Assembly (NCBI GenBank): GCA_046296715.1
Contig: JBKBIN010000001.1
Span: 1 to 64,000, forward strand
Reading direction: 5' to 3'
Source: Candidatus Ratteibacteria bacterium
GTDB taxonomy: Bacteria > Ratteibacteria > UBA8468 > B48-G9 > JAFGKM01
Length of the DNA: 64,000 bases
Each line of letters starts with the position of its first letter. The stretch's first letter is position 1. A model generated the notes under the pieces. It searched no databases and was not told the origin of the DNA. It worked only from the letters and a program-made list of their open reading frames with translations. The position numbers and the translations under genes are program-made. Positions 6,655-28,568 of this stretch are shown here, in pieces.

Positions 6655-6755
6655 AAATAAATATTTTACCCCTTTTTTGCTTTTTTATAAATAATAAGTT
6701 GAAGATAAAAAATCTATAGGTTAGAATATAAAAGTTTAGGAAACCAGGAGGAAAA

Positions 6756-7946
6756 ATGTTAAAAGATATAAAACAGTTGCTTTATACTGCGTGCTATTAT
6801 CCAGAGGAAATTGAAAGAGTTTTAAAAGGAAATTCGTTTTTAAAATTTGACCCTGAACTTGGTTATATACAGATTGATTATATTTTTAGAGATGGAATTT
6901 ATGATACCCTTTCCGAATATTCCTATGATAAAAAATACAATTACAGAAAAATGATAAATTATGCAGATAAACCTTGTAGAATTAATACTTATGGCAACAG
7001 TTATACTCAATGCGCACAAGTTTCAGATGGACAGACATGGCAGGAAATACTTGCAGCCCATTTTAGAGAACCAATAAGAAATTTTGGTGTTGGTGGTTAT
7101 GGTGTTTATCAGGCATATTTAAAAATGATGAGGATAGAAAAAACAGAAATATCAGCAGAATATATAATTTTAAACATATGGGATGACGACCATTTAAGAA
7201 ATATTGATTCTTCAAGATGGATAAGAGTTGCTTGGATACATAAAGATTTACCAAGAGGAGGTGAAGAAAATACTTATCCAGTTCATGGTTTTCCTTGGTC
7301 ACATTTAAGATTCGATCTTGATAAAAATTCATTTATAGAAATTCCTGGGAGATGTAAAAACGAAGATGATTTAAGGAAACTGACTGATAAAGAATATTAT
7401 TATAATTTTTTTAAAGATGACTATGTTGTTCATTTATTTGCTTTAACTCAAGGAGCAGATGCACCGATTGAATATCTTGAAAAACTTGGCGAAGTATTTG
7501 GTTTAAAAATTGATTTAAGAGATCCGAAGAAAAGGATAAAAGATGCGAAAAAACTACATATTACATACGGAATTAAATCAACAATTTATATACTTGAAAA
7601 ATTAAAAAAATGGGTTGAAGAAAACAAAAGAAAATTGATAATAATTTTAAGTTATGATGCTCCGACCTGTAAAAAATATATTAATGAAGGAGAAAGATTT
7701 GATGAAGAACTTTTAAAATATTTAAAAGAAAAAAAATTCTATTTCATTGATACCCTTAAAAAAACAAAAGAAGAATATAAATTGTATAAAATTACAGTTG
7801 ATGAGTTTTTATCCAGATTATATATTGCAAGGGCTGGTGCACAAGTTTTTGGACATTATTCACCTTATGGAAATTTCTGGTTTGCATATGCTATAAGAGA
7901 TGAAATTTTAAACATACTTGACCCAAAACCACCCGCCTATAGTTAG
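6756..7946 (+). CDS. Hypothetical protein, SGNH/GDSL-hydrolase-like
   Basis: GNSYT, NFGVGGYG, GHYSPYGN blocks; RBS AGGAGG. Confidence 0.5.
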   Translation: MLKDIKQLLYTACYYPEEIERVLKGNSFLKFDPELGYIQIDYIFRDGIYDTLSEYSYDKKYNYRKMINYADKPCRINTYGNSYTQCAQVSDGQTWQEILAAHFREPIRNFGVGGYGVYQAYLKMMRIEKTEISAEYIILNIWDDDHLRNIDSSRWIRVAWIHKDLPRGGEENTYPVHGFPWSHLRFDLDKNSFIEIPGRCKNEDDLRKLTDKEYYYNFFKDDYVVHLFALTQGADAPIEYLEKLGEVFGLKIDLRDPKKRIKDAKKLHITYGIKSTIYILEKLKKWVEENKRKLIIILSYDAPTCKKYINEGERFDEELLKYLKEKKFYFIDTLKKTKEEYKLYKITVDEFLSRLYIARAGAQVFGHYSPYGNFWFAYAIRDEILNILDPKPPAYS

Positions 7947-7998
7947 ACTTTCTCAAGATTACTAAAAATAAATATTTTCTGATTTATCCACCGACGTA

Positions 7999-8889
7999 GT
8001 TTAAATTCCTCTTTGGCAGATTGTGACTGACCCTTGAACTTTATCTATTAGATATCCAGCAGTGTTTAAATTCCTCTTTGGCAGATTGTGACGTGCCATC
8101 TTTATTTCTCACTTCCGCATCAGTAGGAATGTTTAAATTCCTCTTTGGCAGATTGTGACTATTTACAGAAAAACAACATATTTAAATTAAAACTCGTTTA
8201 AATTCCTCTTTGGCAGATTGTGACAAATAAAAGGAGTGTAAAATGAAAAAAATCACTGCAAAAGGTTTAAATTCCTCTTTGGCAGATTGTGACTGAGTAA
8301 AATGATAGAGAATTTGAAAAAAGAGTTGGCGTTTAAATTCCTCTTTGGCAGATTGTGACTAAATTATTGATACTGCAATTACCTCATCAAGATGGTGGTT
8401 TAAATTCCTCTTTGGCAGATTGTGACCTTGATGAAGTTTTTATTATAGAAAAAGCATTAACTGAGTTTAAATTCCTCTTTGGCAGATTGTGACTTTTATT
8501 TACTAAAAAACAAAAAAAAAGAGCGGGAGTGTTTAAATTCCTCTTTGGCAGATTGTGACTTTCTTTTTTCTTAAAATTTTTTCATTTAAATAAAAGTTTA
8601 AATTCCTCTTTGGCAGATTGTGACTCGGCCCTTGTGGGTGAACCCTCAATATAATCCTCGGTTTAAATTCCTCTTTGGCAGATTGTGACTCAAAGATTGA
8701 AAAAGTATTAAAAGAGGTTCAAATTTGTTTAAATTCCTCTTTGGCAGATTGTGACAAAAGACAGGTTTAAAATTTAAGGTATACAGTAGAGTAAGTTTAA
8801 ATTCCTCTTTGGCAGATTGTGACCTATGTCAGGAACATAAAATAACAATGTCAATTCTTCGTTTAAATTCCTCTTTGGCAGATTGTGAC
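7999..8889 (-). CRISPR. CRISPR array: 14 identical 29-bp repeats (crRNA sense GTCACAATCTGCCAAAGAGGAATTTAAAC), 13 spacers of 36-40 bp
   Basis: Repeats start on + at 7999, 8064, 8131, 8196, 8265, 8331, 8398, 8465, 8531, 8596, 8661, 8727, 8795, 8861; 3' handle ATTTAAAC and the leader next to cas2 give minus orientation. Confidence 0.98.
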
Positions 8890-9027
8890 CGCAAAAATTT
8901 TATAATAAAATAAAGGGTTTGTCAATTTTTTGTTTAATTTTTTTCGTCAAACCCCTAACTCTGTTATTTTTTTCTATCTGCCAAAGGACAACAAATTTTC
9001 AAAGAACAATACACACTTTTGATCATA
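8890..9027 (-). promoter_or_regulatory. CRISPR leader with sigma70 promoter TTGACA(8925-8920)-17-TAAAAT(8902-8897)
   Basis: AT-rich region between first repeat and cas2; near-consensus promoter 7 nt before the first repeat; inverted GGGTTTG/CAAACCC at 8915-8921/8948-8954. Confidence 0.8.
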
Positions 9028-9309
9028 TTATAACACATTTTTTGTTTTATCCGGTAAATTACTTAAAATTTTTCTCGTAACTTTTACTCCATCTGGCAAA
9101 ATATAAAAAATAACACTATCCCTTTCTTTATCAATAACTTTCATAACATCATTCTCCATCCTGTATATTTGACTTTCTGTTAACTCTCCTTCAAAAACCG
9201 ATTTTTGAATATGTGTAAGATATTTCCTTCCAATTTTTTTAATCTTATTTAATCTCTTCTGGTCTTTTTTCTCTTTTAATTCTATGTCATATATAAAAAT
9301 CACTTTCAT
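9028..9309 (-). CDS. cas2: CRISPR-associated endoribonuclease Cas2
   Basis: VIFIYDI, YLTHIQKSVFEGEL, DSVIFY. Confidence 0.95.
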   Translation of the reverse strand: MKVIFIYDIELKEKKDQKRLNKIKKIGRKYLTHIQKSVFEGELTESQIYRMENDVMKVIDKERDSVIFYILPDGVKVTRKILSNLPDKTKNVL

Positions 9310-10802: not shown

Positions 10803-13268
10803 TTAAAGTATATACTCGGATTTCTTTGGAATCCAAATTCCTTCACAATATCTATTTATTTTTTCTTTCAACTCTTTGGATAGGTCAAGCATTGTTAGTA
10901 ATTCCTTTGAAAGGGGTTCAAGTTGATGTTCTTTATATCTCCACATATTATCATTTATCACATACTCAGCGATTATATCTTTTTTAAACCAGAGCCATGT
11001 AATATCTTTATTTTGGTTTATTTCCTCTACAATTTTTTGTTTTATTTCGTTAACTTTCTCTTCATCTACTAAGGAAATTGTATAAATTTCTCTGAATAGT
11101 TTATGAGCTTCTTCTTTGTTTTCAGAACAATAACCTGAGTTAAGGATTCGGATGGTTTCATAAAATTTATTTATATACTTAGAATTTTCAGGATTACTAT
11201 AAACTTCTTCCACCAATTTCTGTTTTTCTTTTTCTTTTATTTCTGTTTTGTTTTTTAAAGCATCCAGCGTTTTAGAAAGTAATTCTTTTTCATACACTCT
11301 ACCTTTCCCTGACTCTATAATTGAATCTTTTTCTTGAGTATAATAAATATAAACATTCGGTTCTAAATTTGGATAGAATTTATCGTAATCAAATTCTTCA
11401 TCTATATTTTTAATTTTATTAGTAAGTATATCTACTCTTCGCATCACCCTTCCCATTCTCTGGATTAAAGAATCGATTGGGGCAATCTCTGTAAATAAAT
11501 AGTCTGCATCAATATCAAGGGAAGCTTCAACTACCTGGGTTGAAACGAGGATTTTGGGCTCTTTTTCTTCTTCTGGTTTTGGATTTTTAAATTTCTCTTC
11601 TATCTCTTTTTCTTTTTTTCTTCTTTCATTTAATGTGAATCGGGAATGAATTAAATCAAGAAATATATTGTCATTCTTAATATTTGATTTCTTTAATATT
11701 TCGTTATAGATCTCCTTTGCTTTATCAATAGTATTTAGAACAACCAACACTCTTTTGCCTTCATTTGCTTTATTTATAATTTCATCTACATCTTCAGCTA
11801 TATCCTTATTTTTAAGTTCAATTTTGTGCTTTGAACCTGTGTTTATTTTTATTCCAATTTTATTATCATCTTTATAACAATCTATTACTTCTTCATCTTT
11901 AACCACATTTTTTTCCTCCAAATAATCCTTTACAAATTTTGGCAAAGTAGCAGTCATAAGTAAAAATTTCCCACCAAGTGAAACAATATCTTCAATCATT
12001 CTAACAACAATTGCACATGCTTTCGGGTCATATGCCTGAACTTCATCAATTATAAGTTTTGAATATCCTAAAGTTGCATAAATTTTTTCATATTGAGGAT
12101 ATTTTAAGCCAGCAGGAAAAATCTGGTCTCCTGTGCAGATATTAACAGGTAAAGAAAAATATCTTGATAGGTCAAAAATTCTTGGAGTTTCACCTTCTTC
12201 TTCCTTTTTATAAATTTCTGATTTTTCAAGTAAATAAAGGTCAGCATCTGAATGTAAAAGTCCAATATTTTCATTTATAAATGGATCTTCTGAACTATCT
12301 TGGGTCTCATTGAAATAATCACATGCTCTCTCAAACATCTGATTTGTTGCAACTCTTATGGGGAGTGTATAGAAAAACTTTTCTCCTTCTGCCCATAAAA
12401 AAGCAAATTCTGTTTTACCTATACCTGTTGGAGCAATTAAAATAAGATTTTTATCTTTCAAATTGTTTGCTTCTTTTTGCCAGAAATTCTCACCAAATTT
12501 TTGTTTTAATATCTCATTTATCCTTTTTCCCGGAATATTTTTTTCAACTTCATATAAAGAGATTTTATTTTCTTTCTCTACAAAAGATATAAAATGGTCT
12601 ACTCGCATCAAAAAACCTGAAAGAAAAACCCAAAGGTTTAGATTAATTTTCATTTGCATTTCTAATCTTAATCTTTCTGGTAGAAAATAGAGTGTATATG
12701 GAGGAATGATGTTAGTACTTAATAAACTACCATCTTTTTCAAGATGCCTTGCAAGATGCTCGTCAAAGGAAATGAGGTCTTCTGCTTTATAGCCATCTAT
12801 GCAGAAATCCCCAAAATGCTCTTTTAAGATGGTGGCAAGCTTATCGCAATATCCTTCTTTTAATAATAATTCTGATGCCTTTTTCAAGTCCTCATTTATA
12901 TTTAAAAGATATTCCTTTTCATCTACTTTCCAGTGGTGAAATGCAATGGCAGAAAGAAAGGTTGTGTAAAGAGCTTCATCGTTGTTGCATATTTCTTTTA
13001 CTTTTTCCTTGTTAATAAAAAATAATGAGAAAATATTATGGCGTATATCAGGAAAATCATTTATTTTTGGCTCAAAACTTTCATTTCCCATTCTTTCCTG
13101 AAATTTAGGGGAAACTTTACCTAAATCATGGAAAAATACAGCAAAGGAAAGCAATGTTTTTAAATCAGGAATATTTAATTTTCCATAAGGCAATTTATCA
13201 ATTGCTTTTAATACATCTTCTGTATGTTCTCTTAAACTTAATTTATTAGATTTCGCATATATTTCCAT
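10803..13268 (-). CDS. cas3: Cas3 HD nuclease-helicase
   Basis: LREHT, FHDLGK, AFHH; APTGIGKT, IIDEVQ, MTAT, TQVVEASLDIDAD, QRMGRV. Confidence 0.97.
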   Translation of the reverse strand: MEIYAKSNKLSLREHTEDVLKAIDKLPYGKLNIPDLKTLLSFAVFFHDLGKVSPKFQERMGNESFEPKINDFPDIRHNIFSLFFINKEKVKEICNNDEALYTTFLSAIAFHHWKVDEKEYLLNINEDLKKASELLLKEGYCDKLATILKEHFGDFCIDGYKAEDLISFDEHLARHLEKDGSLLSTNIIPPYTLYFLPERLRLEMQMKINLNLWVFLSGFLMRVDHFISFVEKENKISLYEVEKNIPGKRINEILKQKFGENFWQKEANNLKDKNLILIAPTGIGKTEFAFLWAEGEKFFYTLPIRVATNQMFERACDYFNETQDSSEDPFINENIGLLHSDADLYLLEKSEIYKKEEEGETPRIFDLSRYFSLPVNICTGDQIFPAGLKYPQYEKIYATLGYSKLIIDEVQAYDPKACAIVVRMIEDIVSLGGKFLLMTATLPKFVKDYLEEKNVVKDEEVIDCYKDDNKIGIKINTGSKHKIELKNKDIAEDVDEIINKANEGKRVLVVLNTIDKAKEIYNEILKKSNIKNDNIFLDLIHSRFTLNERRKKEKEIEEKFKNPKPEEEKEPKILVSTQVVEASLDIDADYLFTEIAPIDSLIQRMGRVMRRVDILTNKIKNIDEEFDYDKFYPNLEPNVYIYYTQEKDSIIESGKGRVYEKELLSKTLDALKNKTEIKEKEKQKLVEEVYSNPENSKYINKFYETIRILNSGYCSENKEEAHKLFREIYTISLVDEEKVNEIKQKIVEEINQNKDITWLWFKKDIIAEYVINDNMWRYKEHQLEPLSKELLTMLDLSKELKEKINRYCEGIWIPKKSEYIL

Positions 13269-13269
13269 C

Positions 13270-14115
13270 TTATCCTCCTGGATAAATCATCTTGCAAAAG
13301 AAAAGAGGAATACTAAGTTCTTCATCAATTATAAAATTAAAAGGTTTATCAAAATAAAACGGAAAATCACCTTGTTCAAAAAGTTTTACTGGAACATATT
13401 CAAAATTTCTAAAACCATCTTTTATTTCGTAAAATGATGTGATTAAATGAGAACCCCCTTTTATTTTCTGAAAAATTTTTTCAAAATTTTCATCATAGAG
13501 TTTATTATCAATATAACTTTTTCCTCTTTCAGGGTCGGGAATCCATGTGTAATAATTAAATTTTCCATAAAAGGGTTGTTTGTTTTGTTCATTTATTTCT
13601 ATAATTTTTATTGATTCATCAGGATTTCCCTCAAAAACAATCCAATCTTCTGCTCTTCCAAGATGTAATGGATAAATTCTATTTTCTGGATTTTTAAAGG
13701 CATTTTCAATCTCTTTGAGGAAATTTTCATTGGTATGGTGAATATAAATTATTAGTTTAACATTTTCTAATACATCTATTCTTGTTGGCATCTGACCACC
13801 TGGATGTTCTGGCATCTGGTCAAATATTCTATTTTCCGGAGAACCAAATCTTGATTTATGAGAATCAATTTCCAAATTTCTAAACCACACATATTCTCTT
13901 ATCATTGATTCAAATTTGCCATAAATAGCAAGAGATAAACTTTCTTTTAGCTTTTTAAAATTTTCATCATTCTGATCCCTTATCCCCAAAACATTGCAGA
14001 TTAATCCGATTACTGTTGAATAAGGAGGAATAGGATATGTATGTCTTCTTGCAAATGTAAATGGGATTCTATAATGAGCATGCGGTTGATAAATTTTCAA
14101 TCTTAAAACTTTCAT
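13270..14115 (-). CDS. cas5: Cas5, type I-B (Cas5t-like)
   Basis: AHYRIPFT, TYPIPPYSTVIGLI, LHLGRAED. Confidence 0.92.
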   Translation of the reverse strand: MKVLRLKIYQPHAHYRIPFTFARRHTYPIPPYSTVIGLICNVLGIRDQNDENFKKLKESLSLAIYGKFESMIREYVWFRNLEIDSHKSRFGSPENRIFDQMPEHPGGQMPTRIDVLENVKLIIYIHHTNENFLKEIENAFKNPENRIYPLHLGRAEDWIVFEGNPDESIKIIEINEQNKQPFYGKFNYYTWIPDPERGKSYIDNKLYDENFEKIFQKIKGGSHLITSFYEIKDGFRNFEYVPVKLFEQGDFPFYFDKPFNFIIDEELSIPLFFCKMIYPGG

Positions 14116-14128
14116 TATTTATCTCCCT

Positions 14129-14722
14129 TTAAATTTTTGCAAATTCTTTTACAAAAAAATTTTTAATTTCCTTCCAGTTTATTTTTTTAAGCAAAGGGAT
14201 TTCTGGCTCTTTTTCTGCATCTTCAAAATAGGTAAGAGATTTTTTGATCACAAGTTCATCATAATTACCAAATTTTTTCTTGAAAAATTCTATCGCTTTA
14301 TCACCGCTTAATTTTAATTCTTTCATAATGAAATAAACATCCACAAAATCTTTTCTACTCCCCCTTGAGATTATTGCACTGATTTTCATAGCGAGGATAT
14401 CTTCTAAACTGGCAATCTTGATCAAATCTAAATTTTGTAATGGTTTTAACAATGGATATGGATAGTGAAAAAAAGAAAGATTTATTCCTTCTACTTTTGC
14501 GTGGATTGTATTCTCTGAGATCAATTTTATCTCCTGAGATAAAAAATTTGGCTGAAATTTTCTGAAATCAATATTTTTCTCTGTAAAAAAGTCAAGGTCA
14601 ATGGAGTATCTATGTGAAAGATAGTAATAAACAGCCGTTCCTCCTGCAAGATAAAAATTACCTTCTTCAAAAACTGGATAAATTTTTTCTATTACCTTTT
14701 TATGCTTTCTGATTAGTTTCAT
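14129..14722 (-). CDS. AbiEii/AbiGii-type nucleotidyltransferase (type IV TA toxin-like)
   Basis: FYLAGGTA, HRYSIDLDFF, MKISAI, RGSRKDFVDVY, KSLTYFEDAE; ATG 14722 preferred over 14782. Confidence 0.85.
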   Translation of the reverse strand: MKLIRKHKKVIEKIYPVFEEGNFYLAGGTAVYYYLSHRYSIDLDFFTEKNIDFRKFQPNFLSQEIKLISENTIHAKVEGINLSFFHYPYPLLKPLQNLDLIKIASLEDILAMKISAIISRGSRKDFVDVYFIMKELKLSGDKAIEFFKKKFGNYDELVIKKSLTYFEDAEKEPEIPLLKKINWKEIKNFFVKEFAKI

Positions 14723-15008
14723 CTTTAATTTCAAAGCAAAGTCTCCAGAAATTAAGAGATTGTGTTGAAAGAAGTTTCCCATATTTTTTTAAAAAATTTT
14801 TTATTTTCTCAGAACCTATAAGTGAAAGGAGCGTCTTTACCTGTTCTTTATTACCAATTTCAAGAACCCTTGCAATTACAAAGGGGGAATCTAAATTTCT
14901 TACCACTGATTCCCACTTGTAGTCCCAGAAAAGGTCTTTAAGGATTTTAATTGTGTTTTTGTTTTTAGGTTTCATTTCAGAATTAAAACAGCGATTATTT
15001 ACTTCCAT
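14700..15008 (-). CDS. Small DUF6922-like protein, putative antitoxin partner of the AbiEii gene (alternative start 14975)
   Basis: LFWDY...FVIARVLEIG...LNFW pattern; overlaps the downstream NTase gene. Confidence 0.7.
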   Translation of the reverse strand: MEVNNRCFNSEMKPKNKNTIKILKDLFWDYKWESVVRNLDSPFVIARVLEIGNKEQVKTLLSLIGSEKIKNFLKKYGKLLSTQSLNFWRLCFEIKDETNQKA

Positions 15009-16614
15009 CTTTTCTTTTATAGAATAGCCAATTATCTATGAATTCATTCCAATCGGTTATACTATTTTTAGCAATAAAATTTTGATCTATGGCTTGAGGT
15101 TCTCGTGATTCTATAAAAACAAGTGGTTTTCTTTCGCCTTCTTCCCTTTCGATCCATCCATTTTTAATTGCATTTTTTAGAAGGTCTTCTCTTATCTTAA
15201 ATCTCGGTCTATGGTTCTGCTTGTAAAATTCAATATCTACAAAAGAGTGGAAAACAGGCACAGGAAGTTTTGTGACCCCAGCTATAAGAAACAGAGGCAC
15301 AATTCCGGGAGATTCACCAGAGGAATGATAGTATAAACCATTATAAATTGCATTGAGTACTTCCCTTATTCTTTTTTCCTTTTCATTCTGATGTAAAATG
15401 AAAAATACTTTCTTACCTTCTATTTTAACGATGCCAGCTTCTTCATTAAGTACTATTTTCAATTTACCATTTAGGTATAAAGGATTTTCTTTAATTTCAC
15501 CTATTTCTTTATTTTGAATATAAACCTTACGTTTTTTATCTTTTTCATCTTCTTTCATTTCAATTATAAGAATATGTGTTCCTTCCACAGATTTATATTT
15601 TTTATCTTTCTCTATCTCATCCACATTTCTGAAAGTAAGCACTTTATTATATACTTTATATTCTTTATTTTCCTGAACTTCATCAACTTCCTCAATAGTT
15701 TGAGAAAGCCCTAATGCCAATATAAGTTTTTTTGTTTCTTTCTCTAATTTAGGCTCAATGTGAAGATATGGGAAAACATAGATTGTTTCTCCATTTTCTT
15801 CTATCCGTACAACGTTTGTAAATTCTTTTTTTTCTTTTCCACTTACTTTAATATTGTCACTTTTTATCTTAAGAATTCCTTCTTTTTCATTATATTCTTC
15901 TATGACTTTTTCTTTTAGAGGTTTAAAATATAGCATCCTTTCTTTTTCCCAAATTTCAAATTCCTCTTTCACAGACCACATTTTTCCTTTACCTTCTTCA
16001 TCTTTTTCTTCAATGTTTTCAATCGTAAATTTTTTGCCTTTTTTTATAAATAAAGTAAGGTTTTTGGATTTATCATCATGTCTAAACTCTTCAATGTCAA
16101 ATGAATCACTACCAATTTTATCTATGTCAAGGGTGAAACTAACTTTAAAAAATGATTTACCTTCTTCTCTATTCACAGGAATCGGAGTAGCACCAGATCT
16201 TTGAGCCAAATCATGATTCGCATTAAGCCCCATATCGCCTTCCCAATTTTCAAAAGCAATTGCTTTTGTTATACCTAACGGCGCTTTCCGAGTAAGACTT
16301 AATTGACCACCAACTGTAAACATATAGCCAAAAATATCCAATTCGGCAGAAGATATTATATTGGAACTGAGTAGATCGAATTGAACGATTTGCGTTTTAC
16401 CTTCTTTTAAAACTCGTAGAGGAGCTGGAACCCAGCCATAACCCCTTACAAGAGTTGTGAAAAGATAATGTCTAAGAGCGTATTTTGAAATATATGGATA
16501 TGTATTTTTCCACCCTCTTGTTAATTTTTTTATTGAGAGCACATTTCCTACTTTTTCATCTCTATTCAAAGCATCTGCCTCAAATAGAATCGTTATAGTA
16601 ATTGCGTTTTTCAT
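14995..16614 (-). CDS. cas7: Cas7 (Cst2/DevR family) with a ~235-aa insertion
   Basis: ALNRDE, SIKKL, ISKYALRHY, ELDIFGYMFT, TRKAPLGITKAIA, TLDIDKIG ... EKEKRIREVLNAI, PLFLIAG. Confidence 0.88.
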   Translation of the reverse strand: MKNAITITILFEADALNRDEKVGNVLSIKKLTRGWKNTYPYISKYALRHYLFTTLVRGYGWVPAPLRVLKEGKTQIVQFDLLSSNIISSAELDIFGYMFTVGGQLSLTRKAPLGITKAIAFENWEGDMGLNANHDLAQRSGATPIPVNREEGKSFFKVSFTLDIDKIGSDSFDIEEFRHDDKSKNLTLFIKKGKKFTIENIEEKDEEGKGKMWSVKEEFEIWEKERMLYFKPLKEKVIEEYNEKEGILKIKSDNIKVSGKEKKEFTNVVRIEENGETIYVFPYLHIEPKLEKETKKLILALGLSQTIEEVDEVQENKEYKVYNKVLTFRNVDEIEKDKKYKSVEGTHILIIEMKEDEKDKKRKVYIQNKEIGEIKENPLYLNGKLKIVLNEEAGIVKIEGKKVFFILHQNEKEKRIREVLNAIYNGLYYHSSGESPGIVPLFLIAGVTKLPVPVFHSFVDIEFYKQNHRPRFKIREDLLKNAIKNGWIEREEGERKPLVFIESREPQAIDQNFIAKNSITDWNEFIDNWLFYKRKDGSK

Positions 16615-18028: not shown

Positions 18029-20638
18029 TTATATAATTTTCTCTATCACAATTACAAAATTTGCAAAGTCATTTAATTTATCTTCATATTTTTTTAGCAT
18101 AGTTAGAAAGTTCTCTTCGTGCTTTTTTAATTCTTCTTTGGTAAACTTTTTCTCATCAAATTTCCTTTTAATGATTCTTTTTAATTCAACCTCAACTAAC
18201 TCAAATTTTTCTAATTTAGAAACTGCTTCTAAAAATTCATAACCAAAACCCTTAGAAATTTTACCATTTCTAAAAAGACAAATTAAATCATCAAAAAAAT
18301 CTTTATCTTCCCATTTTCCACCAAATCCTCTTTCTTCACCATTTCTTGCAAGAAATGTTATATAAAAAGCATCTCTACCATAATCACTTTTTGCCTTCTT
18401 TTTCGCTTCCCTTGCTTTATTTAAAGCTAAACTGAGTGGATACTTATGATGAACAATCACTATTCCAGCACTCATAGATGCCCTATCACTAAGCACTTCT
18501 TTAAAAGTTTTTTGTAAATTATAAGCACAGTCAAAAATTTTTTCTAATGGTAAAAAAGCAAGGACATCATCACCACCTGCATAAATTAGTTTTCCAAAAT
18601 ATTCACCTTCTACTATATCTCTTACTTTACTCAAAGCAAATTCAGTTAATCTCCTTGAAAAATTTTGATGGATTGACGCTGAAATTGGATGTTTTAAACA
18701 GAGGAGTTCTTGAAGTTCTTCTTTATCTTTCCCCTCAGAATATTTTAATAAAGCATCTTTTGTTTTTTGATGTAATAAATCTTCTATTTTTGGCATTTTT
18801 TCTCCACTTAACCACTTACCCATTTCATCTCCATCCATCATAAGAATCGCATAATAGGTAGGAGGCTTGGGGAACCTATTTTCATCACTTAATAGATCAA
18901 AAATTTCATTTATTTTCTTCTTTACTTCGTTATTTATATCGCTTATCCCGTATTCCTTTTTTAAATACTCCTCTCTATATGAACTTTCAAAAAACCATTG
19001 CCCATCTATTTCATAAAGGGGATGCCCTTTTAAAGCAGGAACACTTTTGGATTCAGGAATATTTTTGACTTTCTTTTTAAACGCTTCAAATTTATTTTTA
19101 AAATCATTTGCTAAATCTTTATTAAGATTATATTTCCACATTATAGTTGCCATCTCTGATGTAGAAGGGAATTTTACTTCTTCTATCTTTAACTCCTTAC
19201 TTATAATCAAAGGAAAAACTCTTTTTATAAAACAAACACCACAAAGCTTTTCTTTCTCTTTTACTATTCCTTTTTCTAAACTTTCCCAGTTGATTTCTAA
19301 AACATCATAGTTTCCACATAAATGACATTTTTCACCTTTCCGCTCTCCGATATCTTCAAATTTTCTATACATTTTTCTTGACGCTAAAAACTTTTCTGTT
19401 AATTCAAAAAGTAGGGAATAAGCACAGCCAACATTAGAAGTGATTTCGTTTTTATCCTTTTTAGACCTATAATATGGATGCTCACTTATAATTTTAACTG
19501 CTTTATAAATTTCATTTTCACCAACTAAATCTTTATATTCATCCAAAACTGTTTGAACATCTGTGTAATTTGAATTAAACCAGGGAAGATAGACATAATA
19601 TATTTGGAAGTAATTTTTTAAGTGCGATTTAATTGTGCTTTTTATTTTATCTTTAATTTCAACGCTTTTTAGTTCTTCAATTTCACTAAGTTTATCAACC
19701 CATTTATCGAGCTCTCTTATTATTCTATCTTTACATCCCTGAGCGATATCTTTTGCTTTTTCAAAAGGAACAATTGCAAAAAATCTATTTGGGAAATTGG
19801 CAATGGTCAGATATTCATCTAAACGAGCATTATCAACAAACTTTTTAAACCATTCTTCATGTTGAAATTTTTCTACAATCTGTGTATCTTTAATTTTTTC
19901 ATAAATCCATTTATCAACAAGGGGATTTCTCAAAAGGTTAGGATAAATAACATTATCGGGTCCGAGCTCTTCTAAGATAACTTCAATTGCCTTATAGGTT
20001 AAATAAGATAAAATATAGCTTCCAGCCCAAAGGTCGGATGTTTTTCTTGCTGTTGAGATAAACTCCTGGACAGGTCCAATTGTAAAAAGTAAGAAAGCCG
20101 GCTTTGGTAAGGTAGAGACAATTGCAGAAGTCTGCACGAGATGGTCATATATAGAATGATTTGGTGCTCTTGAATCTGCTGGATGTGTGTTTATCCAGGG
20201 AAAAATTTCTGGTAAAAAGCGCCAGAGTAAAAGGAAATATATTTTTGCGCTTTCATTCTCTTCTCTAAAGGTGCAATGAGCTATTTTATCAAAAAATTGG
20301 ATTACTTCAAATTCATCAGATGGCTTTTCATATTTTTCAGTTTTCAAAGAAAAGGGGTCAATGAATATAATTTCATCGGTCGCTGGTTTAGTTTCTTCGT
20401 CAAAATTCTTTTTTAACTTTTCATCTTCAAATTTTGGACTTACAATAATTCTACTTATTGTAGAAGCAAGATGGTCAGCAGTTTTAACATTATTCTCTTT
20501 AAGAGATTCATATGTATAAAATTGTTTAAAATACTCTTCTGCCACTTTTTCATAAGACTTCGTCAACTTCCACATTACATATTGCTTATCAATGGGGTCA
20601 TGAAGAAGAGCTTTTAGTTTTAGTTTGTAGTCTGGCAT
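18029..20638 (-). CDS. cmr2: Cas10/Cmr2, type III-B
   Basis: ALLHDP, PADSRAPNHSIYDHL, GPVQEFISTARKTSDLWAGS, CHLC/CGVC, MDGD, YAGGDD. Confidence 0.96.
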   Translation of the reverse strand: MPDYKLKLKALLHDPIDKQYVMWKLTKSYEKVAEEYFKQFYTYESLKENNVKTADHLASTISRIIVSPKFEDEKLKKNFDEETKPATDEIIFIDPFSLKTEKYEKPSDEFEVIQFFDKIAHCTFREENESAKIYFLLLWRFLPEIFPWINTHPADSRAPNHSIYDHLVQTSAIVSTLPKPAFLLFTIGPVQEFISTARKTSDLWAGSYILSYLTYKAIEVILEELGPDNVIYPNLLRNPLVDKWIYEKIKDTQIVEKFQHEEWFKKFVDNARLDEYLTIANFPNRFFAIVPFEKAKDIAQGCKDRIIRELDKWVDKLSEIEELKSVEIKDKIKSTIKSHLKNYFQIYYVYLPWFNSNYTDVQTVLDEYKDLVGENEIYKAVKIISEHPYYRSKKDKNEITSNVGCAYSLLFELTEKFLASRKMYRKFEDIGERKGEKCHLCGNYDVLEINWESLEKGIVKEKEKLCGVCFIKRVFPLIISKELKIEEVKFPSTSEMATIMWKYNLNKDLANDFKNKFEAFKKKVKNIPESKSVPALKGHPLYEIDGQWFFESSYREEYLKKEYGISDINNEVKKKINEIFDLLSDENRFPKPPTYYAILMMDGDEMGKWLSGEKMPKIEDLLHQKTKDALLKYSEGKDKEELQELLCLKHPISASIHQNFSRRLTEFALSKVRDIVEGEYFGKLIYAGGDDVLAFLPLEKIFDCAYNLQKTFKEVLSDRASMSAGIVIVHHKYPLSLALNKAREAKKKAKSDYGRDAFYITFLARNGEERGFGGKWEDKDFFDDLICLFRNGKISKGFGYEFLEAVSKLEKFELVEVELKRIIKRKFDEKKFTKEELKKHEENFLTMLKKYEDKLNDFANFVIVIEKII

Positions 20639-20652
20639 AATTTATCTCCTTT

Positions 20653-22011
20653 TTATATATTGTTCAATAGTGAATTTTTTATTTTTTCGAGGCTTTCTTG
20701 GGTATACTTGAAATAAAGTTTTTCATTACATTTTTTTACTTCAGTAACCATTCTCTCAAACCCAGCATGAGCAAAGAAATTTCTTGGGTTAAATTCACCA
20801 TCTTCACCATAAAGGAATTTATTTAATAATTCCCAATTCTCAGAAACTTTATCAGCTAATTTTTTAGATTCTTTATCTTTACCTTCTTCAAGATTACGTA
20901 TCTCATTACCAATAAAAGCGATGTTTAGGTTGAGTCCAAATATTTCATAGATACCCTTAAACTTTTCTATTTCCTCAAGATTTACACCGGAATCTCTATT
21001 TGGTTTAATACACTTATCTTTAAAAATTCTTATGATTCCTTCATAAAAACCTAACGAGAGCAATGTTTTCAAAAAGTCATCCTTGGGTAACTGCGGGCCT
21101 TTTTTCCAATTCTTACTTAATTTTTCCTTTGCCCTCCCTATTATCTCTTTAGAGAATTCTTCAATAGAATTGATTTCATCAAATTCAAAAGTATAATTTG
21201 CAAGTGGTGTAGCATTTTTAATTGCTGAGAAATGAATAGCAAAGTTGGTAAAATATTTTTGAAGTTTCCTCTTAAATTCTCTATTATCTTCTCCAAATAA
21301 AACATTAGTTATGTTTCTGGACAATTTATAATCATCAATGTCCTCTTTTTTTATAGGTGAAGAAAAGAAAGCTTTAAATTTTGTTTCTACTTGGTGGATT
21401 TTATAAGAACTGGCAGATGAAACTAATATAGGATCACTAAAAGCTTTATAAATTTTACATTTTGATTTATCATCCCAATTTTGTAATTGATTAAAAACTG
21501 AAAAATGTCTTGCTGCTTCCAGCAATGCAGATACATAAATGTTTAAACCACTTGAAATATCCACATAAAGTTCATCAAATTTATCTTCAAAGTATCGTTC
21601 TATCATATCAAATAAAATTTCAAGCACAATATCATCATAAGAGGCTTCAAATTTCACTCCCTCATATTCACCAATTGAATGAATTATGATAAAATCGTCG
21701 GCAAGTTTAGAGTGCGGATGATTATTGAAAAACTCTTGTGGGTTCTCTAAATATCTATTCCTTCCTTCTTCATTTTCCAAGATATTTTTAATTTTGCTCT
21801 TAAAATTATCATCTAATTGAGATTTATCACTAATTAAAGTTCTATTAAAAGACAAACTAACGGAATAAATCAAAACCACCTTTGCATCATTTCCAAAGTG
21901 TTCCTTTAAAACAAATGATGACAGTTCTTTTTCATATTCTCTATTTTTATAAATAAACTTCAAAGGTTTCATTTGAGCATCAAGTCTTCCAATTTGATAA
22001 ATCAATTTCAT
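20653..22011 (-). CDS. csx1: Csx1-family CARF-HEPN ribonuclease
   Basis: CARF DISSGLN (DxTHG variant); HEPN RNFFAHAG. Confidence 0.88.
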   Translation of the reverse strand: MKLIYQIGRLDAQMKPLKFIYKNREYEKELSSFVLKEHFGNDAKVVLIYSVSLSFNRTLISDKSQLDDNFKSKIKNILENEEGRNRYLENPQEFFNNHPHSKLADDFIIIHSIGEYEGVKFEASYDDIVLEILFDMIERYFEDKFDELYVDISSGLNIYVSALLEAARHFSVFNQLQNWDDKSKCKIYKAFSDPILVSSASSYKIHQVETKFKAFFSSPIKKEDIDDYKLSRNITNVLFGEDNREFKRKLQKYFTNFAIHFSAIKNATPLANYTFEFDEINSIEEFSKEIIGRAKEKLSKNWKKGPQLPKDDFLKTLLSLGFYEGIIRIFKDKCIKPNRDSGVNLEEIEKFKGIYEIFGLNLNIAFIGNEIRNLEEGKDKESKKLADKVSENWELLNKFLYGEDGEFNPRNFFAHAGFERMVTEVKKCNEKLYFKYTQESLEKIKNSLLNNI

Positions 22012-22334
22012 TCAAACTCCTCCCTTTTTATTAAATCTCCAACTTTAAAATCTTTTGTATGGCTTTCTATCACTACTGCACCGTTTAATCTTGGGTCAAA
22101 TATTGCAATAGCCTTTGTGGGATGATAAAAATGAATTAAATATCCATATAACCATATTGGACCTCTTCCTGATAGAATTATTATATCTGACGCAAAGCCA
22201 GCTTTCACATGGTCGGGTGGCTTTAGATTACTTAAATCAGAAGGTTCAAGGTCTTTTAAAAGTTCAAACTCAATCAATGTAAAATTGTTTTTATGTTTTA
22301 TGTTAAATTTAATTACATCATTCAAAGATTCCAT
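22008..22334 (-). CDS. csx3: Csx3 (Crn3) ring nuclease
   Basis: ILSGRGPIWLYGYLIHFYH, AIFDPRLNGAVVIESH. Confidence 0.92.
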   Translation of the reverse strand: MESLNDVIKFNIKHKNNFTLIEFELLKDLEPSDLSNLKPPDHVKAGFASDIIILSGRGPIWLYGYLIHFYHPTKAIAIFDPRLNGAVVIESHTKDFKVGDLIKREEFE

Positions 22335-23433
22335 AACCTAACCTCGTTTTTGCCCCAATTCCAAATTCTTTTAGGGCTTTTTCAAGAAGTGGCTTTATTT
22401 CATTTTGCAAGTTATTTAATTTATCTTTAAATTCCTTCAATATGTCTCTTACTGCTAATGGCATAGTTTTTTTTAAAGTTTCATCATCCATTTCCAAAAT
22501 TTTATTCGCCCTAAACTCATCAAATAAAATATTAAATTTAAATTCTACACCTTCTTTAACAGTTAAAAATACTATTGGCACAGGATTCTCCCAATCTCCC
22601 GGCGGATTTTTCTCAGGATCTTCACTATAATACTTTTGATAATGCACATTCATTATATCTAAATCAAAAATTTGGGTGTTTTCTTCAATCACTGGATAAG
22701 CATCAAGAAAGAGCAAGAGCCCTTTAAAGTTTTGAGCACCAAAGAGAAGTTGATATCTTAAAATATCTTTCTCATCAGGACACAAGTCGCCATAAAATTT
22801 ATTCTGAAGCTCATTCAGTTGTTTTTCATTGTTTAAAATATTTTTATTTTCAGCAATCTTCCAAAAAGCTGCCATTCTGCAAATACCTTTTAAAGCGCTT
22901 GCTGGAATGTAAGGAATTCCGTATATGTGATGTAAAGTTAAAGATGTTTCAAGCACATGATCTGAACCAAGTCCGATTATAAGACGAGATGAGGTATGTA
23001 GGGAAAGTGACTCAGGGAAAACATAAATATATTTTTGTTTTTTTAATGCTTCAATTTGAGAGTTAATCTTAGTTTTTAAATTCTCTGCATATTTAGTAAA
23101 ACTATTTTTGAACTTTTCAATTAACTGCTTTAAGAAATACTTTTTACTATCCCCACCAATGCAGGTTTCTTTGATACTGAACCAAACTTCTTCTTTATTA
23201 TATATGTTGTCTTTAATTTCGGCATCTATAATTGGAACATATTTATTCAGGAAAAGAGAAAAATTTTCTATTTCTTTGGGGGATTTTTCAGCGATAAATT
23301 TTTCTTTTGCTTTTTCCACGTTATTGTCTTTAACGGGTATATCGTTACTCCATCTAAAACCCCACCATATTTTACCTTTAATTTCAAATCTTTCATTATT
23401 AGATCTTGTAGAACTAAATTTTTTCCCTTTCAT
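22318..23433 (-). CDS. cmr6: Cmr6 RAMP
   Basis: RLIIGLG, ETSLTLHHIYGIPYIPASALKG, DIMNVHY, GIGAKTRLGYG. Confidence 0.95.
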   Translation of the reverse strand: MKGKKFSSTRSNNERFEIKGKIWWGFRWSNDIPVKDNNVEKAKEKFIAEKSPKEIENFSLFLNKYVPIIDAEIKDNIYNKEEVWFSIKETCIGGDSKKYFLKQLIEKFKNSFTKYAENLKTKINSQIEALKKQKYIYVFPESLSLHTSSRLIIGLGSDHVLETSLTLHHIYGIPYIPASALKGICRMAAFWKIAENKNILNNEKQLNELQNKFYGDLCPDEKDILRYQLLFGAQNFKGLLLFLDAYPVIEENTQIFDLDIMNVHYQKYYSEDPEKNPPGDWENPVPIVFLTVKEGVEFKFNILFDEFRANKILEMDDETLKKTMPLAVRDILKEFKDKLNNLQNEIKPLLEKALKEFGIGAKTRLGYGIFE

Positions 23434-23985
23434 TTACTCCTCCATAATTTTTTTAAATTTCTCAACAAGTTTTTCATTTAAAACCTTCTCAAATTCTGAA
23501 AGCCATTTTGTAATATATCTTGCGTCAATGTTTTTATTCTTCAGGATTATGTTTTTAACATCCTCCATATCTCTTTCTCTACCAGCAACTATTTTATGTA
23601 TAATTAAATCTTCGCAGGAAGCATAGCAAACTTCTGTATCATCAATTTTTATTCTATTTACCCTTTTAAGTGCCTCTTTTTCATATTCTGAAAAAGAAAA
23701 AATAAAATCTATTCTTATTCCGCTTTCTTCATCTATAACGGGCAAAACCATTGTTTTCTTTACAAAATCAAAAGGATTTTCAGGAATTATTTTTAAATTT
23801 AACTCCTTAACAATTCTTTCAATTATTTCATATTTATCAGTACTGACTCCAAGAGTTATATCAATATCCCTTGTTAATCTTGGCTCACCATAGATTAATA
23901 CTGCCTGTCCACCAATTATCATATATTCAATTTCTTTTTTATAAAGCGATTTTGCAACATTTTTAATCAGTTCTTTTAATTCCAT
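23434..23985 (-). CDS. Nucleotidyltransferase (DUF6036/AbiEii-like)
   Basis: IIGGQAV, GEPRLTRDIDI, EDLIIHKIVAGRERDMEDV. Confidence 0.8.
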   Translation of the reverse strand: MELKELIKNVAKSLYKKEIEYMIIGGQAVLIYGEPRLTRDIDITLGVSTDKYEIIERIVKELNLKIIPENPFDFVKKTMVLPVIDEESGIRIDFIFSFSEYEKEALKRVNRIKIDDTEVCYASCEDLIIHKIVAGRERDMEDVKNIILKNKNIDARYITKWLSEFEKVLNEKLVEKFKKIMEE

Positions 23986-24172
23986 TTATAGCCCTTGCAT
24001 ATTTTATATCAATCTCAATTCCTTCAAGTAAGTTTTTAGGCGGAAACTTTTTTAATTCCTTAGCAAATTTCAAAAGTTCTTCAAAGATTTGAATATTTTT
24101 GTTTATATCCACTTTTGAATTTTTAATAAATTCTCTTTCAAATTCCTCAAGCAATTTTTTATCTCTTATCAT
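23963..24172 (-). CDS. Small protein, putative antitoxin partner of the downstream NTase
   Basis: 69 aa; overlaps cmr5 stop and NTase start; FPPKNLLEGIEIDIKYARAIN. Confidence 0.6.
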   Translation of the reverse strand: MIRDKKLLEEFEREFIKNSKVDINKNIQIFEELLKFAKELKKFPPKNLLEGIEIDIKYARAINGIKRTD

Positions 24173-24531
24173 TCCTTTTCTCCTAATTCCACTTCTGCCA
24201 TTCTTTTTAACCAGTTTGCAAATTCCAATATTTCCATTGTCGCAAGACGAAGTCTTGAAACATCAGAATTTACTAATTCCTCAAGTGCATCTTGATTTAT
24301 AAATTTTTTCTTTTTTAACCATTCATTCAAAGTATTATATACTTCTTTTCTATCTCCTTTTGCTTTTAAGAAAGCAAGTGTTGGAATAAGACCATTTGAA
24401 ACTATAAGGGAAGATACCTTTAATGCGTAGGTTTTATATTTATCTTTATATTCTTTATTATTGACTTCTTTAACCTTTTCCAAAGCAAACTCTGCTCTTG
24501 TCTGAGTTAATGTTTTAATTTCATCATTCAT
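24169..24531 (-). CDS. cmr5: Cmr5 small subunit
   Basis: QTRAEFALEKV, LIVSNGLIPTLAFL, WLKRMAE. Confidence 0.92.
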   Translation of the reverse strand: MNDEIKTLTQTRAEFALEKVKEVNNKEYKDKYKTYALKVSSLIVSNGLIPTLAFLKAKGDRKEVYNTLNEWLKKKKFINQDALEELVNSDVSRLRLATMEILEFANWLKRMAEVELGEKE

Positions 24532-25421
24532 GTTTTTACCTCCTTTATTTCAAAGTTTAGAGATTTAATTTGTTTTACACATTCATCATGTTTATCCCAT
24601 TTATTACATATCAAGACAACTCCATAAAAGCCTTTACTTATCTTTTTTATTTGAATAATCAAGGGAGAAACTTTTCTTGGATTCCCAATTGCTATCGCTT
24701 CAACAGAAAGTTTTCTTTTTAATTCTCTGTAAAAATTATCTCTTAATTCATTCATAGCATCTTCCCAACTTCTCCAAAAGTTATTTTTGGGTGGTATGAG
24801 ATATATTGAAGTATTTGAAAGGTTCATAAAATCAAAATCCTGCTTGCTTTGATTAATTGGAAACTGCTTCAGTTTTTTCTTTAATTCTTCTGCAATTTCT
24901 TCTACTCTGTTTCCACTTATCTGAAAATTTTTATTATCCTTAATCATTATACTTCCAAATCCCCTTCTCCATCTTGCCCCTATTCCTCCAAAATTGGTTA
25001 AAAAGAAGAGGGTGTTATTCAGCTCATTTAAAGTTTTATCTAAATTAAATTGAGGTAAAATCCCAAAGTCTATTTCAAATTTGCCAGAGGTATAAGATTT
25101 TCTTTGTATTTTATCATAAGGTCTTACTGCCTCATTTTCACCTTTAGCCCTTCTGTCGTTCATACATAAATAGGCTTCTCCACTTACTAAATCTCTTTTC
25201 TTTATTAAAACTCTTATCCTTGAAGCCAACTCTTGCGAACCCCAAATTTCTCCTTCTTCTTTCTTTAATTCTTTCAACCCTAAACTTGCTCCTTTATAAA
25301 ATCTAAACCACCATCTTAATATTCCTTTTATTGATTGTTCCCTTAATTCAACTTGGTTTTTATCTACACCTGCCATTATGAGAGGTGTGACTATCTCAAA
25401 TTTAAAATTTATTTGTTGCAT
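24528..25421 (-). CDS. cmr1: Cmr1 RAMP
   Basis: IVTPLIMAG, ELREQSIKGILRWWFR, FGGIGARWRRGFGS. Confidence 0.92.
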   Translation of the reverse strand: MQQINFKFEIVTPLIMAGVDKNQVELREQSIKGILRWWFRFYKGASLGLKELKKEEGEIWGSQELASRIRVLIKKRDLVSGEAYLCMNDRRAKGENEAVRPYDKIQRKSYTSGKFEIDFGILPQFNLDKTLNELNNTLFFLTNFGGIGARWRRGFGSIMIKDNKNFQISGNRVEEIAEELKKKLKQFPINQSKQDFDFMNLSNTSIYLIPPKNNFWRSWEDAMNELRDNFYRELKRKLSVEAIAIGNPRKVSPLIIQIKKISKGFYGVVLICNKWDKHDECVKQIKSLNFEIKEVKT

Positions 25422-25444
25422 GCCTTCACCTCATTTTATTAAAA

Positions 25445-26329
25445 TTATGAAGCTTTCACCTTCATTAATCCCATTCCCAAAGTTTCATCGCCACCAAGTT
25501 GGATTATGTTGCCGTTCAATAAATTTTTCATCTCATTTTGAACTTTTTGGGCACATTTTATTTCCTGAATATCTTTAATATCTTTTTTATATGGATCCGT
25601 TATAAACAAAAATCCATAAAATACGCTTTCAGCAGGAACAAGCTCAATGGTAAATAAAGCGCCTTCTGAAACTGTTCCAGTTGTTTGATCAATTCTTATC
25701 CTTGTTCTTATTTCAACAGCATATTTTGTAAAATCCCTAAAGACATTGTCCGAAACAATGGCAAAATGTTTCTTAAAGAAATCACCTTTTATTTCATCTG
25801 GAAGGAATTCAGAAAGTTTATCCGCCAATCCATCAATATTTTGAGAATCAACATCAAAAACAAATTCTTCAAGAGCAACTTTATTGTTATTAATTTTTAA
25901 TTCCGGTTTTTCACAAACAAGAATTTTATTATCATCATTAATTTCAGGAATTTCTGGCAAATTATCTTTTTCAATACTTTTCAATTCATTTTTAAATCTT
26001 TTTAAAACATAAGGACAGGTTATATAGGCAAATACTCCTTTTACAGAACGAACTGGATAAAATAAAATTTTTGCATCGGTAAGAGATATACAAGAAGCAT
26101 ATTCTTCTGCTTCTTTTTCAGGCCCAAAAATAACATCCACTTTACCCTTATCACTCCAGACTCTTTCAGCAAGTGCTCTTATCACACCTTTAATTCCACT
26201 TCCTGCAAGAATTGGGAAATCTGTGTGTTTCTCCCTTTGAACTGGATTGTCAACATAAGAAACACTTGTTCCTGAACCCATATGAACCGGTGTTTGGGCA
26301 TAAAAAGTTAAAATTAATTTTTCTTTCAT
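25445..26329 (-). CDS. cmr4: Cmr4 RAMP (target RNase)
   Basis: TPVHMGSG, VDNPVQREKHTDFP, GSGIKG, QLGGDETLGMG. Confidence 0.95.
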   Translation of the reverse strand: MKEKLILTFYAQTPVHMGSGTSVSYVDNPVQREKHTDFPILAGSGIKGVIRALAERVWSDKGKVDVIFGPEKEAEEYASCISLTDAKILFYPVRSVKGVFAYITCPYVLKRFKNELKSIEKDNLPEIPEINDDNKILVCEKPELKINNNKVALEEFVFDVDSQNIDGLADKLSEFLPDEIKGDFFKKHFAIVSDNVFRDFTKYAVEIRTRIRIDQTTGTVSEGALFTIELVPAESVFYGFLFITDPYKKDIKDIQEIKCAQKVQNEMKNLLNGNIIQLGGDETLGMGLMKVKAS

Positions 26330-26340
26330 ATTGAACCTCC

Positions 26341-27818: not shown

Positions 27819-28568
27819 TTATTTTTCATAACCTTTCACTATTTCAAGGAGACCAAAACCCTGACCTGTTCTTACTCCAAATCCATAATCATATAAAAAT
27901 TGTAAAATCTCTGGCTCACCTTCTAAGATAAATTTTCCCCTAAAACCTCTTACATATCCGTTATAATGAGGTATAACTGTTTCAATTATTGAATTTTTAT
28001 CTAAGAAAGAAAATTTAAGGTTTATCCTTTTATTAATATTTTTCAAATATTTTAACCTTTCTTCTGTCCTTTTCCTTAGTACTTCATTAAATCTTTCAAT
28101 ATTTTCTTCTTCTGGAATTATATACCAGTTTTTAAAGTCATCTGCTCTTTCTTCAGGGTCTGTTAGAATAGAAATACCAATTGTTCTAAATATAACTTGA
28201 TTGTCTTTTATTTTTTTATTTGGTAATAATGAAACATTATCAAGTTGAAATCTATGTCCATTAATTGTTATAAAGTCGTTTCTATTTTCTTTTAAAGTTA
28301 GTAAACCGTTCCAGAAATATGAAATAACTGAAAAATCACCACTTGAAAAAATTATTGAAATAGTTTTTCCTATTTTTTTTTTTTCAAATTCTTCGCCAAA
28401 ATAAGGGGAAAAAACATATGGCTTTGTTTTTTTGAATTCAAAAAGTGAATTGTAAAATGGTCTGTTTGATGTTTCAAATGTTTTCTTGATAAATGAGATA
28501 ATAGAACTTCTTGTATTTTCTTTTAGGTCTGTTTCTGTTTGGCTGGTAAAGTTTAATAAAATTCTCAT
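27819..28568 (-). CDS. cas6: Cas6 crRNA-processing endoribonuclease
   Basis: KPYVFSPY, FSSGD, G-rich loop YGFGVRTGQGFG. Confidence 0.92.
   Translation of the reverse strand: MRILLNFTSQTETDLKENTRSSIISFIKKTFETSNRPFYNSLFEFKKTKPYVFSPYFGEEFEKKKIGKTISIIFSSGDFSVISYFWNGLLTLKENRNDFITINGHRFQLDNVSLLPNKKIKDNQVIFRTIGISILTDPEERADDFKNWYIIPEEENIERFNEVLRKRTEERLKYLKNINKRINLKFSFLDKNSIIETVIPHYNGYVRGFRGKFILEGEPEILQFLYDYGFGVRTGQGFGLLEIVKGYEK

Follow-up and report, generated by a model that had tools for sequence, protein, structure and literature searches.

A type I-B locus with an enlarged Cas7

The window analysed here, a stretch of 64,000 nucleotides from a Candidatus Ratteibacteria bacterium, carries on its minus strand a type I-B locus with the order cas8b, a 100-aa ORF, cas7, a DUF6922/AbiEii-like pair, cas5b, cas3 and a CRISPR array (Table 1). 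The three ORFs after cas3 were recognised by eye as cas4, cas1 and cas2. The genes expected of a type I-B operon are all present (cas8b, cas5b, cas3 and cas6b, together with the array). The cas7 product, P0001, scored 148 bits against TIGR02585 (cut-off 72.75) and 147.5 against PF01905 (cut-off 23.8), and it keeps 80 of the 96 highly conserved core columns (columns with at least 85% conservation across 108 cores). The DevR models align to it in two stretches, in agreement with the original prediction of a 539-aa type I-B Cas7. The protein is a member of the Cas7/Cst2/DevR family, and shares with the known type I-B systems (T. maritima I-B1, CAST 8fcj) the family scores, the RRM core, the cas8b-cas7-cas5-cas3 order and spacers of 36-40 nt.

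Table 1. Features of the type I-B locus and of the Cas7 insert, in positions of the window
Feature	Position	Strand	Evidence
CRISPR array, 14 repeats (29 nt) and 13 spacers (36-40 nt)	7999..8889	-	
cas3 HD-helicase, frame intact	10803..13268	-	family profile matches
cas5b (Cas5t)	13270..14115	-	TIGR01895 above cut-off
cas7/cst2/devR, type I-B, 539 aa (P0001)	14995..16614	-	DevR PF01905, TIGR02585; core fold vs 8fcj_C
Whole insert, residues 169-410, predicted all-beta	15385..16110	-	
Predicted D0, C-terminal strands, 392-410, back into the Cas7 core	15385..15441	-	
Predicted D2, second nested domain, about residues 322-391	15442..15651	-	ranges 163-217/232 of insert model
Predicted return hairpin (about 286-301), with the middle of D0 (about 302-321)	15652..15759	-	
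Predicted D1, distal nested domain, about residues 202-284	15763..16011	-	ranges 43/49-123/125 of insert model
Predicted D0, N-terminal part, about residues 169-195, boundary approximate	16030..16110	-	
Cas11b, standalone small subunit, 100 aa	16611..16913	-	PADLOC PDLC01190, E 3.8e-34
Cas8b without C-terminal Cas11 domain, 365 aa	16906..18003	-	PADLOC PDLC01204, E 4.6e-94; Pfam Cas_CXXC_CXXC
cas6b	27819..28568	-	upstream of intervening III-B cmr genes

A type III-B set located between cas6 and cas8b (18029-27438) encodes Cmr2/Cas10, RAMPs, Cmr5, Csx1 and Csx3, with no HD match listed for its Cmr2/Cas10. Since a single array was found in the genome, the I-B and III-B systems likely share it. 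The cmr operon is interrupted at 23434-24172 by another nucleotidyltransferase (DUF6036/DUF2204), accompanied by a partner of 69 aa. The DUF6922 and AbiEii-type nucleotidyltransferase pair between cas7 and cas5 (14129-15008) is likely a toxin-antitoxin and may stabilise the cas operon; similar ORF starts were seen 3' of cas7 in the related loci L002, L003, L019, L022-L026, L058, L072 and L090.

The orientation of the array was taken from the leader side and the AAAC end of the repeats. Spacer 11 (8690-8726) matches a 646-bp contig binned in the same genome (C91:238-273, flank CCA), where 36 nt align with a single internal mismatch and another lies at the PAM-proximal end, and spacer 3 has an 86% match in contig C83; both contigs may be fragments of mobile elements. 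Two scans of the spacers against viral contigs gave no matches. The flank was readable for three protospacers (TTA, CCA and GAA); two of the three fit the YYD PAM given in the accessible text on T. maritima I-B1, and three are too few to define a PAM. Spacer lengths and protospacer flanks are a weak indication that the system is in working order. Short contigs of run X1 covering 7900-9030 contain other spacers between identical repeats, pointing to array diversity in the sample.

The Cas7 insert and its predicted architecture

Characterised I-B Cas7 proteins of ~300 aa have a short loop between beta3 and alpha2 (the accessible descriptions give 34 kDa for T. maritima Cas7 and 35 kDa for Synechocystis Cas7b), whereas P0001 has 242 residues there. 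The limits of this insert were set by separate N-core and C-core profiles against relatives without it, which have a 12-aa loop at the same place. The original prediction had set the insert at residues 171-405; the extra region is present, and its true extent is slightly wider, 169-410. All eight quoted motifs were found, including TLDIDKIGSD (161-170) and EKEKRIREVLNAI (411-423), and the two repeat units 21 aa apart sit at 305-320 and 326-341. The insert is K/E-rich, as had been noted, with 36.6% K+E compared with 15.1% in the Cas7 core and 19.6% in the long ORFs of the genome, a level reached by 9 of 3698 overlapping windows of those ORFs. Its net charge is -3 to -4.

The insert is real; it is not a misassembly, and an intein is extremely improbable. 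In a hot-spring run that may be the source sample itself, a Logan contig spans 14361-18200 with no differences, which rules out misassembly, and the architecture is common to P0002 and P0060 (53% insert identity) and to the partial L098. No RNA run was listed among those containing the sequence. Inteins end in His-Asn, followed by Cys, Ser or Thr. The insert does start with Ser and end in HQN, but the next residue is Glu, and the inserts of P0002 and P0060 end otherwise, without the His/Asn end. A HINT domain was listed neither by Pfam for this Cas7 nor among the fold-search rows for the insert. No known domain was found in the insert at useful scores in Pfam, NCBIfam, PADLOC and PHROGs, nor among PDB sequences; profile, fold and end-motif results gave no sign of the known domain or intein that would have refuted the original prediction. 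With an identical second assembly, homologous long inserts in 27 protein clusters and conserved core columns that speak against a pseudogene, it is extremely improbable that the long form is an artefact and is not produced at that length.

Cas7 was modelled with AlphaFold2 on a 28-row alignment, with a mean pLDDT of 73.9 in the core. The predicted core has the RRM fold and aligned with the I-B Cas7 8fcj_C over 241 residues (Z 16.8, rmsd 4.2). In the model, the insert sits between RRM beta3 (152-163) and alpha2 (409-425); Cas7 anatomy is treated in PMC3727216. The shared Cas7 insertion sites named in the accessible part of PMC4615900 are beta1-alpha1, beta2-beta3, alpha1-beta2 and the end of the last strand; the beta3-alpha2 site is absent from that list, and thus differs from the shared insertions. 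Folded alone, the insert is predicted to be all-beta (pLDDT 87.9, pTM 0.65). Weak structural matches fell in three ranges (both ends together, ~202-284 and ~322-391), which were read as a proximal domain, D0, and two nested ones, D1 and D2, so that three nested beta domains with approximate boundaries are predicted. The original prediction of a beta-rich, repetitive insertion is supported as regards a folded extra region, while the build is predicted to be nested and not a simple row of repeats. D0 is based on structural rows spanning residues 5-252 of the model with just 43-62 residues aligned; D1 is common to the ~190-aa class of inserts, and D2, which opens with the repeat at 326-341, was seen only in P0001, P0002/P0033 and P0060.

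Fold searches, which covered D0 within the whole-insert model, gave no match of use. The best VIA match in 48,161 chains had Z 4.6 and belonged to generic curved sheets (kinase N-lobes, for example), and Foldseek rows from PDB and viral sets had TM below 0.2 and rmsd of 11-33 A, the top PDB rows being beta-rich neurotoxin binding domains that were judged non-specific. ESM Atlas returned nothing at or above 0.9 for the insert.

By analogy, the insert resembles in kind the INS domain of types III-D/E, the wrist loops of I-F2 Cas7fv and the HABAS domains of the RNA polymerase beta-prime subunit; homology is claimed with none of them. As far as the accessible texts go, INS too is large and variable and interrupts a Cas7 RRM; DiCas7-11 can do without it and SbCas7-11 requires it (bioRxiv 2024.08.01.606276, PMC13294483, PMC11127173), but it is present in one copy, on the terminal Cas7.4 of a type III effector, and contacts the guide-target duplex. 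The P0001 insert, unlike INS, belongs to a DNA-targeting I-B Cascade and would be on every backbone subunit. Chains of III-D/E matched the Cas7 core and were not among the rows for the insert model, INS being only partly resolved in the structures, according to the sources available. The Cas7fv wrists, in the accessible descriptions, are likewise extensions of Cas7, assembling along the filament; however, they are loops replacing the missing Cas8/Cas11, whereas here Cas8 and Cas11 are present and the insert is predicted to consist of nested domains. A sequence or fold match between wrist and insert was not shown. [quoted passage not shown] In the open literature, which largely leaves out subscription journals and with them the main papers on CRISPR classification, no description of a type I Cas7 with such inserts was found.

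Size, duplication and exchange of the insert within the clade

A profile built from four inserts retrieved 27 protein clusters with homologous long inserts, all of them DevR proteins of 466-539 aa. A GTDB scan with core patterns yielded 92 relatives, 80 of which were kept by the scan; six were dropped (two duplicates of known relatives, three truncated and one with a broken frame), leaving 74 that could be measured. Their inserts have 25 aa or less in 2 cases, 26-110 in 53, 111-230 in 18 and more in 1; the 26-110 class consists mostly of one ~65-aa module and the 111-230 class mostly of a duplicated module. Since long-insert proteins served as seeds for the scan, these figures describe this Cas7 clade, not all of I-B. 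Inserts at the site are the norm of the clade (72 of the 74 loci) and that of P0001 is not a one-off; in these comparisons its 242 aa appear as the large end of a clade-wide size series. In the phylum to which the window belongs, a TIGR02585 match was obtained for 11 of 65 genomes, in open frames of 300-540 aa. Many named hosts of the relatives are thermophile or hot-spring lineages. One relative, L065, with an insert of 192 aa, is the cultured Rosettibacter primus.

Other sequences occur at the same site. The Cas7 loop of L034 (5905-7674) has a separate 246-aa expansion, a different insert of 75-89 aa is found in L057, L088, L093 and L096, and a low-complexity E/K tract replaces D1 in L067 (1132-2613). 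In L044, a Caldisericota MAG, cas7 (5998-7060) is divided between two frames of 197 and 120 aa, being either broken or affected by a sequence error. A single-module profile that included flanking core residues matched 28 proteins of at least 201 aa among 7,997 candidates scored, all of them DevR, and the insert used alone as query had one matching representative, a Cas7. With these queries, the module was not found outside Cas7, including phage records and IMG/VR for the clade.

The profile of 41 single modules matches ~190-aa inserts twice, at both ends, above 500 of 500 shuffles in all three cases, and hhalign gave 95% and 98% for the copies against the single module and 70% for copy against copy. 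The insert of L023 corresponds to the two ends of the L002 insert, which meet in it at a repeated LTIK stretch, and looks like a clean loss of the nested part of a long insert. Duplication of the module is thus well supported for the family, and clear only at that level. In the window's protein, the match of the insert to the single-module profile is weak (its score was reached by 10 of 500 shuffles), and the 87.6% obtained by hhalign for a hand-joined D0 is partly circular because the joins were chosen by hand. Of 300 residue shuffles, 2 did as well as the 16-residue repeat pair at 305/326; for DNA, 50 of 300 codon shuffles did as well as the best internal repeat, which is not significant. 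The duplicated build proposed in the original prediction therefore applies to the family, in its ~190-aa class, while repetition within P0001 is just modestly above chance; for D2 of this protein, an origin by duplication is suggested. The possibility that D1 and D2 are circularly permuted copies of the module was not supported (profile comparison probability of at most 10%). Judging from the profiles, the ~190-aa class would stem from a ~65-aa module that was copied into itself, and D2 would be an addition of this lineage.

Inserts of different size are found between near-identical cores: L029 (72 aa) and P0030 (194 aa) are 89/100% identical in their N/C cores, and L055 (79 aa) and P0018 (188 aa) 91/79%, indicating that the module has been gained, lost or swapped. 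Between L028 and L062, dS is 2.7 in the insert compared with 0.44 and 0.15 in the flanks. L101, which has no insert, is 80% identical to the window's proteins in Cas11, 72% in Cas5 and 81% in the C-core (411-480), with just 51-53% identity to the window's Cas7 over residues 41-168, a pattern consistent with exchange of the central segment. On a quick core-only tree of 108 rows, the window's Cas7 groups with P0005, which lacks the insert (SH-aLRT 99), and the size class changes at least 23 times, compared with 36-47 in 100 shuffles; since the changes are fewer than in the shuffles and the classes are clustered, exchange seems to be occasional and not constant. Monophyly of the long inserts was rejected (p-AU 1e-59, core-only, LG+G4) with 40 of the 108 rows, a subset picked after viewing the tree.

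The insert is under relaxed purifying selection. Its dN/dS (0.16-0.79) was below 1 and above the N-core value in all 16 measurable pairs, which are few, overlapping, non-independent and partly saturated; values above 1, as for positive selection, were found in none of the 16. In the single-module class, the median identity is 29% for the insert and 65/50% for the cores, and the conserved columns of the alignment are just D, W and F, with D and W fixed by the selection of sequences. D1 is well conserved throughout the ~190-aa class.

The 100-aa Cas11b has 75% identity with the C-terminal domain that L022 carries on its fused Cas8. Among the 79 loci with upstream sequence, window included, Cas8/Cas11 is split in 55 (19 with long, 34 with medium and 2 with short inserts) and fused in 16 (1 long, 11 medium and 4 short), with 8 that could not be assigned. 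The split is the norm of the clade and does not depend on the insert. The suggestion that the split Cas8 and the insert together define an undescribed I-B variant was not sustained, since Cas11b is already in PADLOC and the split is found with long, medium and absent inserts; coupling between the two was rejected on the same grounds. The dedicated PADLOC models for I-B systems with standalone Cas11b ('small subunit of some I-B systems') match both ORFs, and no difference from those systems was found. In the accessible texts of PMC13199841, PMC11899642 and bioRxiv 2020.04.18.045682, the Cas11 of I-B is translated internally from cas8b; a separate cas11b gene is modelled in PADLOC and little studied in the literature available. 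Standalone Cas11b proteins come in two sizes, ~100 aa and ~155-220 aa with an N-terminal extension (L019, L028, L098 and others).

Possible roles of the insert

The accessible text of PMC11096372 gives seven Cas7 for the Synechocystis I-B complex, each covering 6 nt; taken with spacers of 36-40 nt, this stoichiometry suggests about seven copies here, which supports the earlier claim that each Cascade would display several copies of the extra domain. Because it is folded, selected, optional, exchangeable, uncharged and, by RRM topology, opposite the thumb, the insert is preferably, if tentatively, read as an optional, variable outer coat on these Cas7 subunits, hindering anti-CRISPRs that bind the backbone. 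Going by RRM topology only, the site would lie at the end of the RRM sheet opposite the thumb and away from the crRNA; the insert would project outward from each backbone subunit, and the coat would keep phage anti-CRISPR proteins off Cas7. The Cas7-AcrIE10 structure, with a known anti-CRISPR acting on Cas7, was among the core fold matches, and an Acr strips Cas7 from I-F Cascade, according to the available text of PMC11899642. Counting against a coat, no anti-CRISPR against this Cas7 clade was identified, and the conservation of D1 across the ~190-aa class fits a structural or a binding role equally.

A doubtful but serious competitor is a structural or near-neutral appendage that braces neighbouring Cas7 subunits or aids solubility at high temperature, its size shifts being tolerated accidents at a permissive loop. 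The many thermophile and hot-spring hosts and the hot-spring origin of the sample run agree with this, as do a surface that is K/E-rich yet neutral, selection that is purifying only, the L023 insert, which resembles a clean collapse across the LTIK repeat, and the INS domain of III-E, whose deletion left DiCas7-11 active in the accessible accounts. However, a brace sits poorly with the complete absence of the insert in close relatives and with the 34 kDa reported for T. maritima Cas7 in the text available, unrelated inserts occupy the same site (L034 and the L057 group), and the swaps between near-identical cores suggest selection for difference. Exposed, multi-copy beta domains could also serve as a docking platform for a host partner, whether Cas11b/Cas8b, Cas3, the nucleotidyltransferase pair or the III-B complex, and the DUF6922/AbiEii-like pair does lie directly 3' of cas7 here and, by ORF starts, in several relatives. 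Docking is nevertheless improbable, given that the split or fused state of Cas8/Cas11 does not follow insert class, that cas5 is directly 3' of cas7 in many insert-bearing loci and that the single module is poorly conserved.

Least favoured among the roles for a protein made at full length, and quite improbable, is a nucleic-acid-binding arm that would steer the displaced strand or flanking DNA, in the manner of the wrist helix of Cas7fv or the INS domain of III-D/E. Such arms have precedents in other Cas7 proteins, as far as the accessible sources describe them, and a Cas7fv-like cluster was among the Atlas feature neighbours (0.78-0.81, at lead level only). The neutral-to-acidic charge argues against nucleic-acid binding, and the earlier proposal of such binding is disfavoured: besides the charge of P0001 itself, the medians are -4 for 45 long and -2 for 51 medium inserts, with none above +5, and both Cas8b and Cas11b, whose place is taken by the wrist in I-F2, are kept here.

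To return to the coat, in its most far-reaching form, itself doubtful, it would be a counter-counter-defence: a widespread, thermophile-rich I-B clade would protect its Cascade from backbone-binding anti-CRISPRs by means of a self-nesting, exchangeable beta domain, so far with no structural match, which every Cas7 would display and recombination would enlarge or replace, so that a core Cas protein would carry a variable surface of its own. The Cascade of this clade is likely thermostable, and the site offers a clear case of domain growth through nested duplication. Whatever the role of the insert, the Cas7 site tolerates from 12 to 246 residues, which makes it a candidate position for multi-copy fusions. 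The shield idea can be tested directly on natural pairs whose cores are near-identical and whose inserts differ; if it is true, Cascade would evade anti-CRISPRs through variation of its surface while its active parts remain unchanged.
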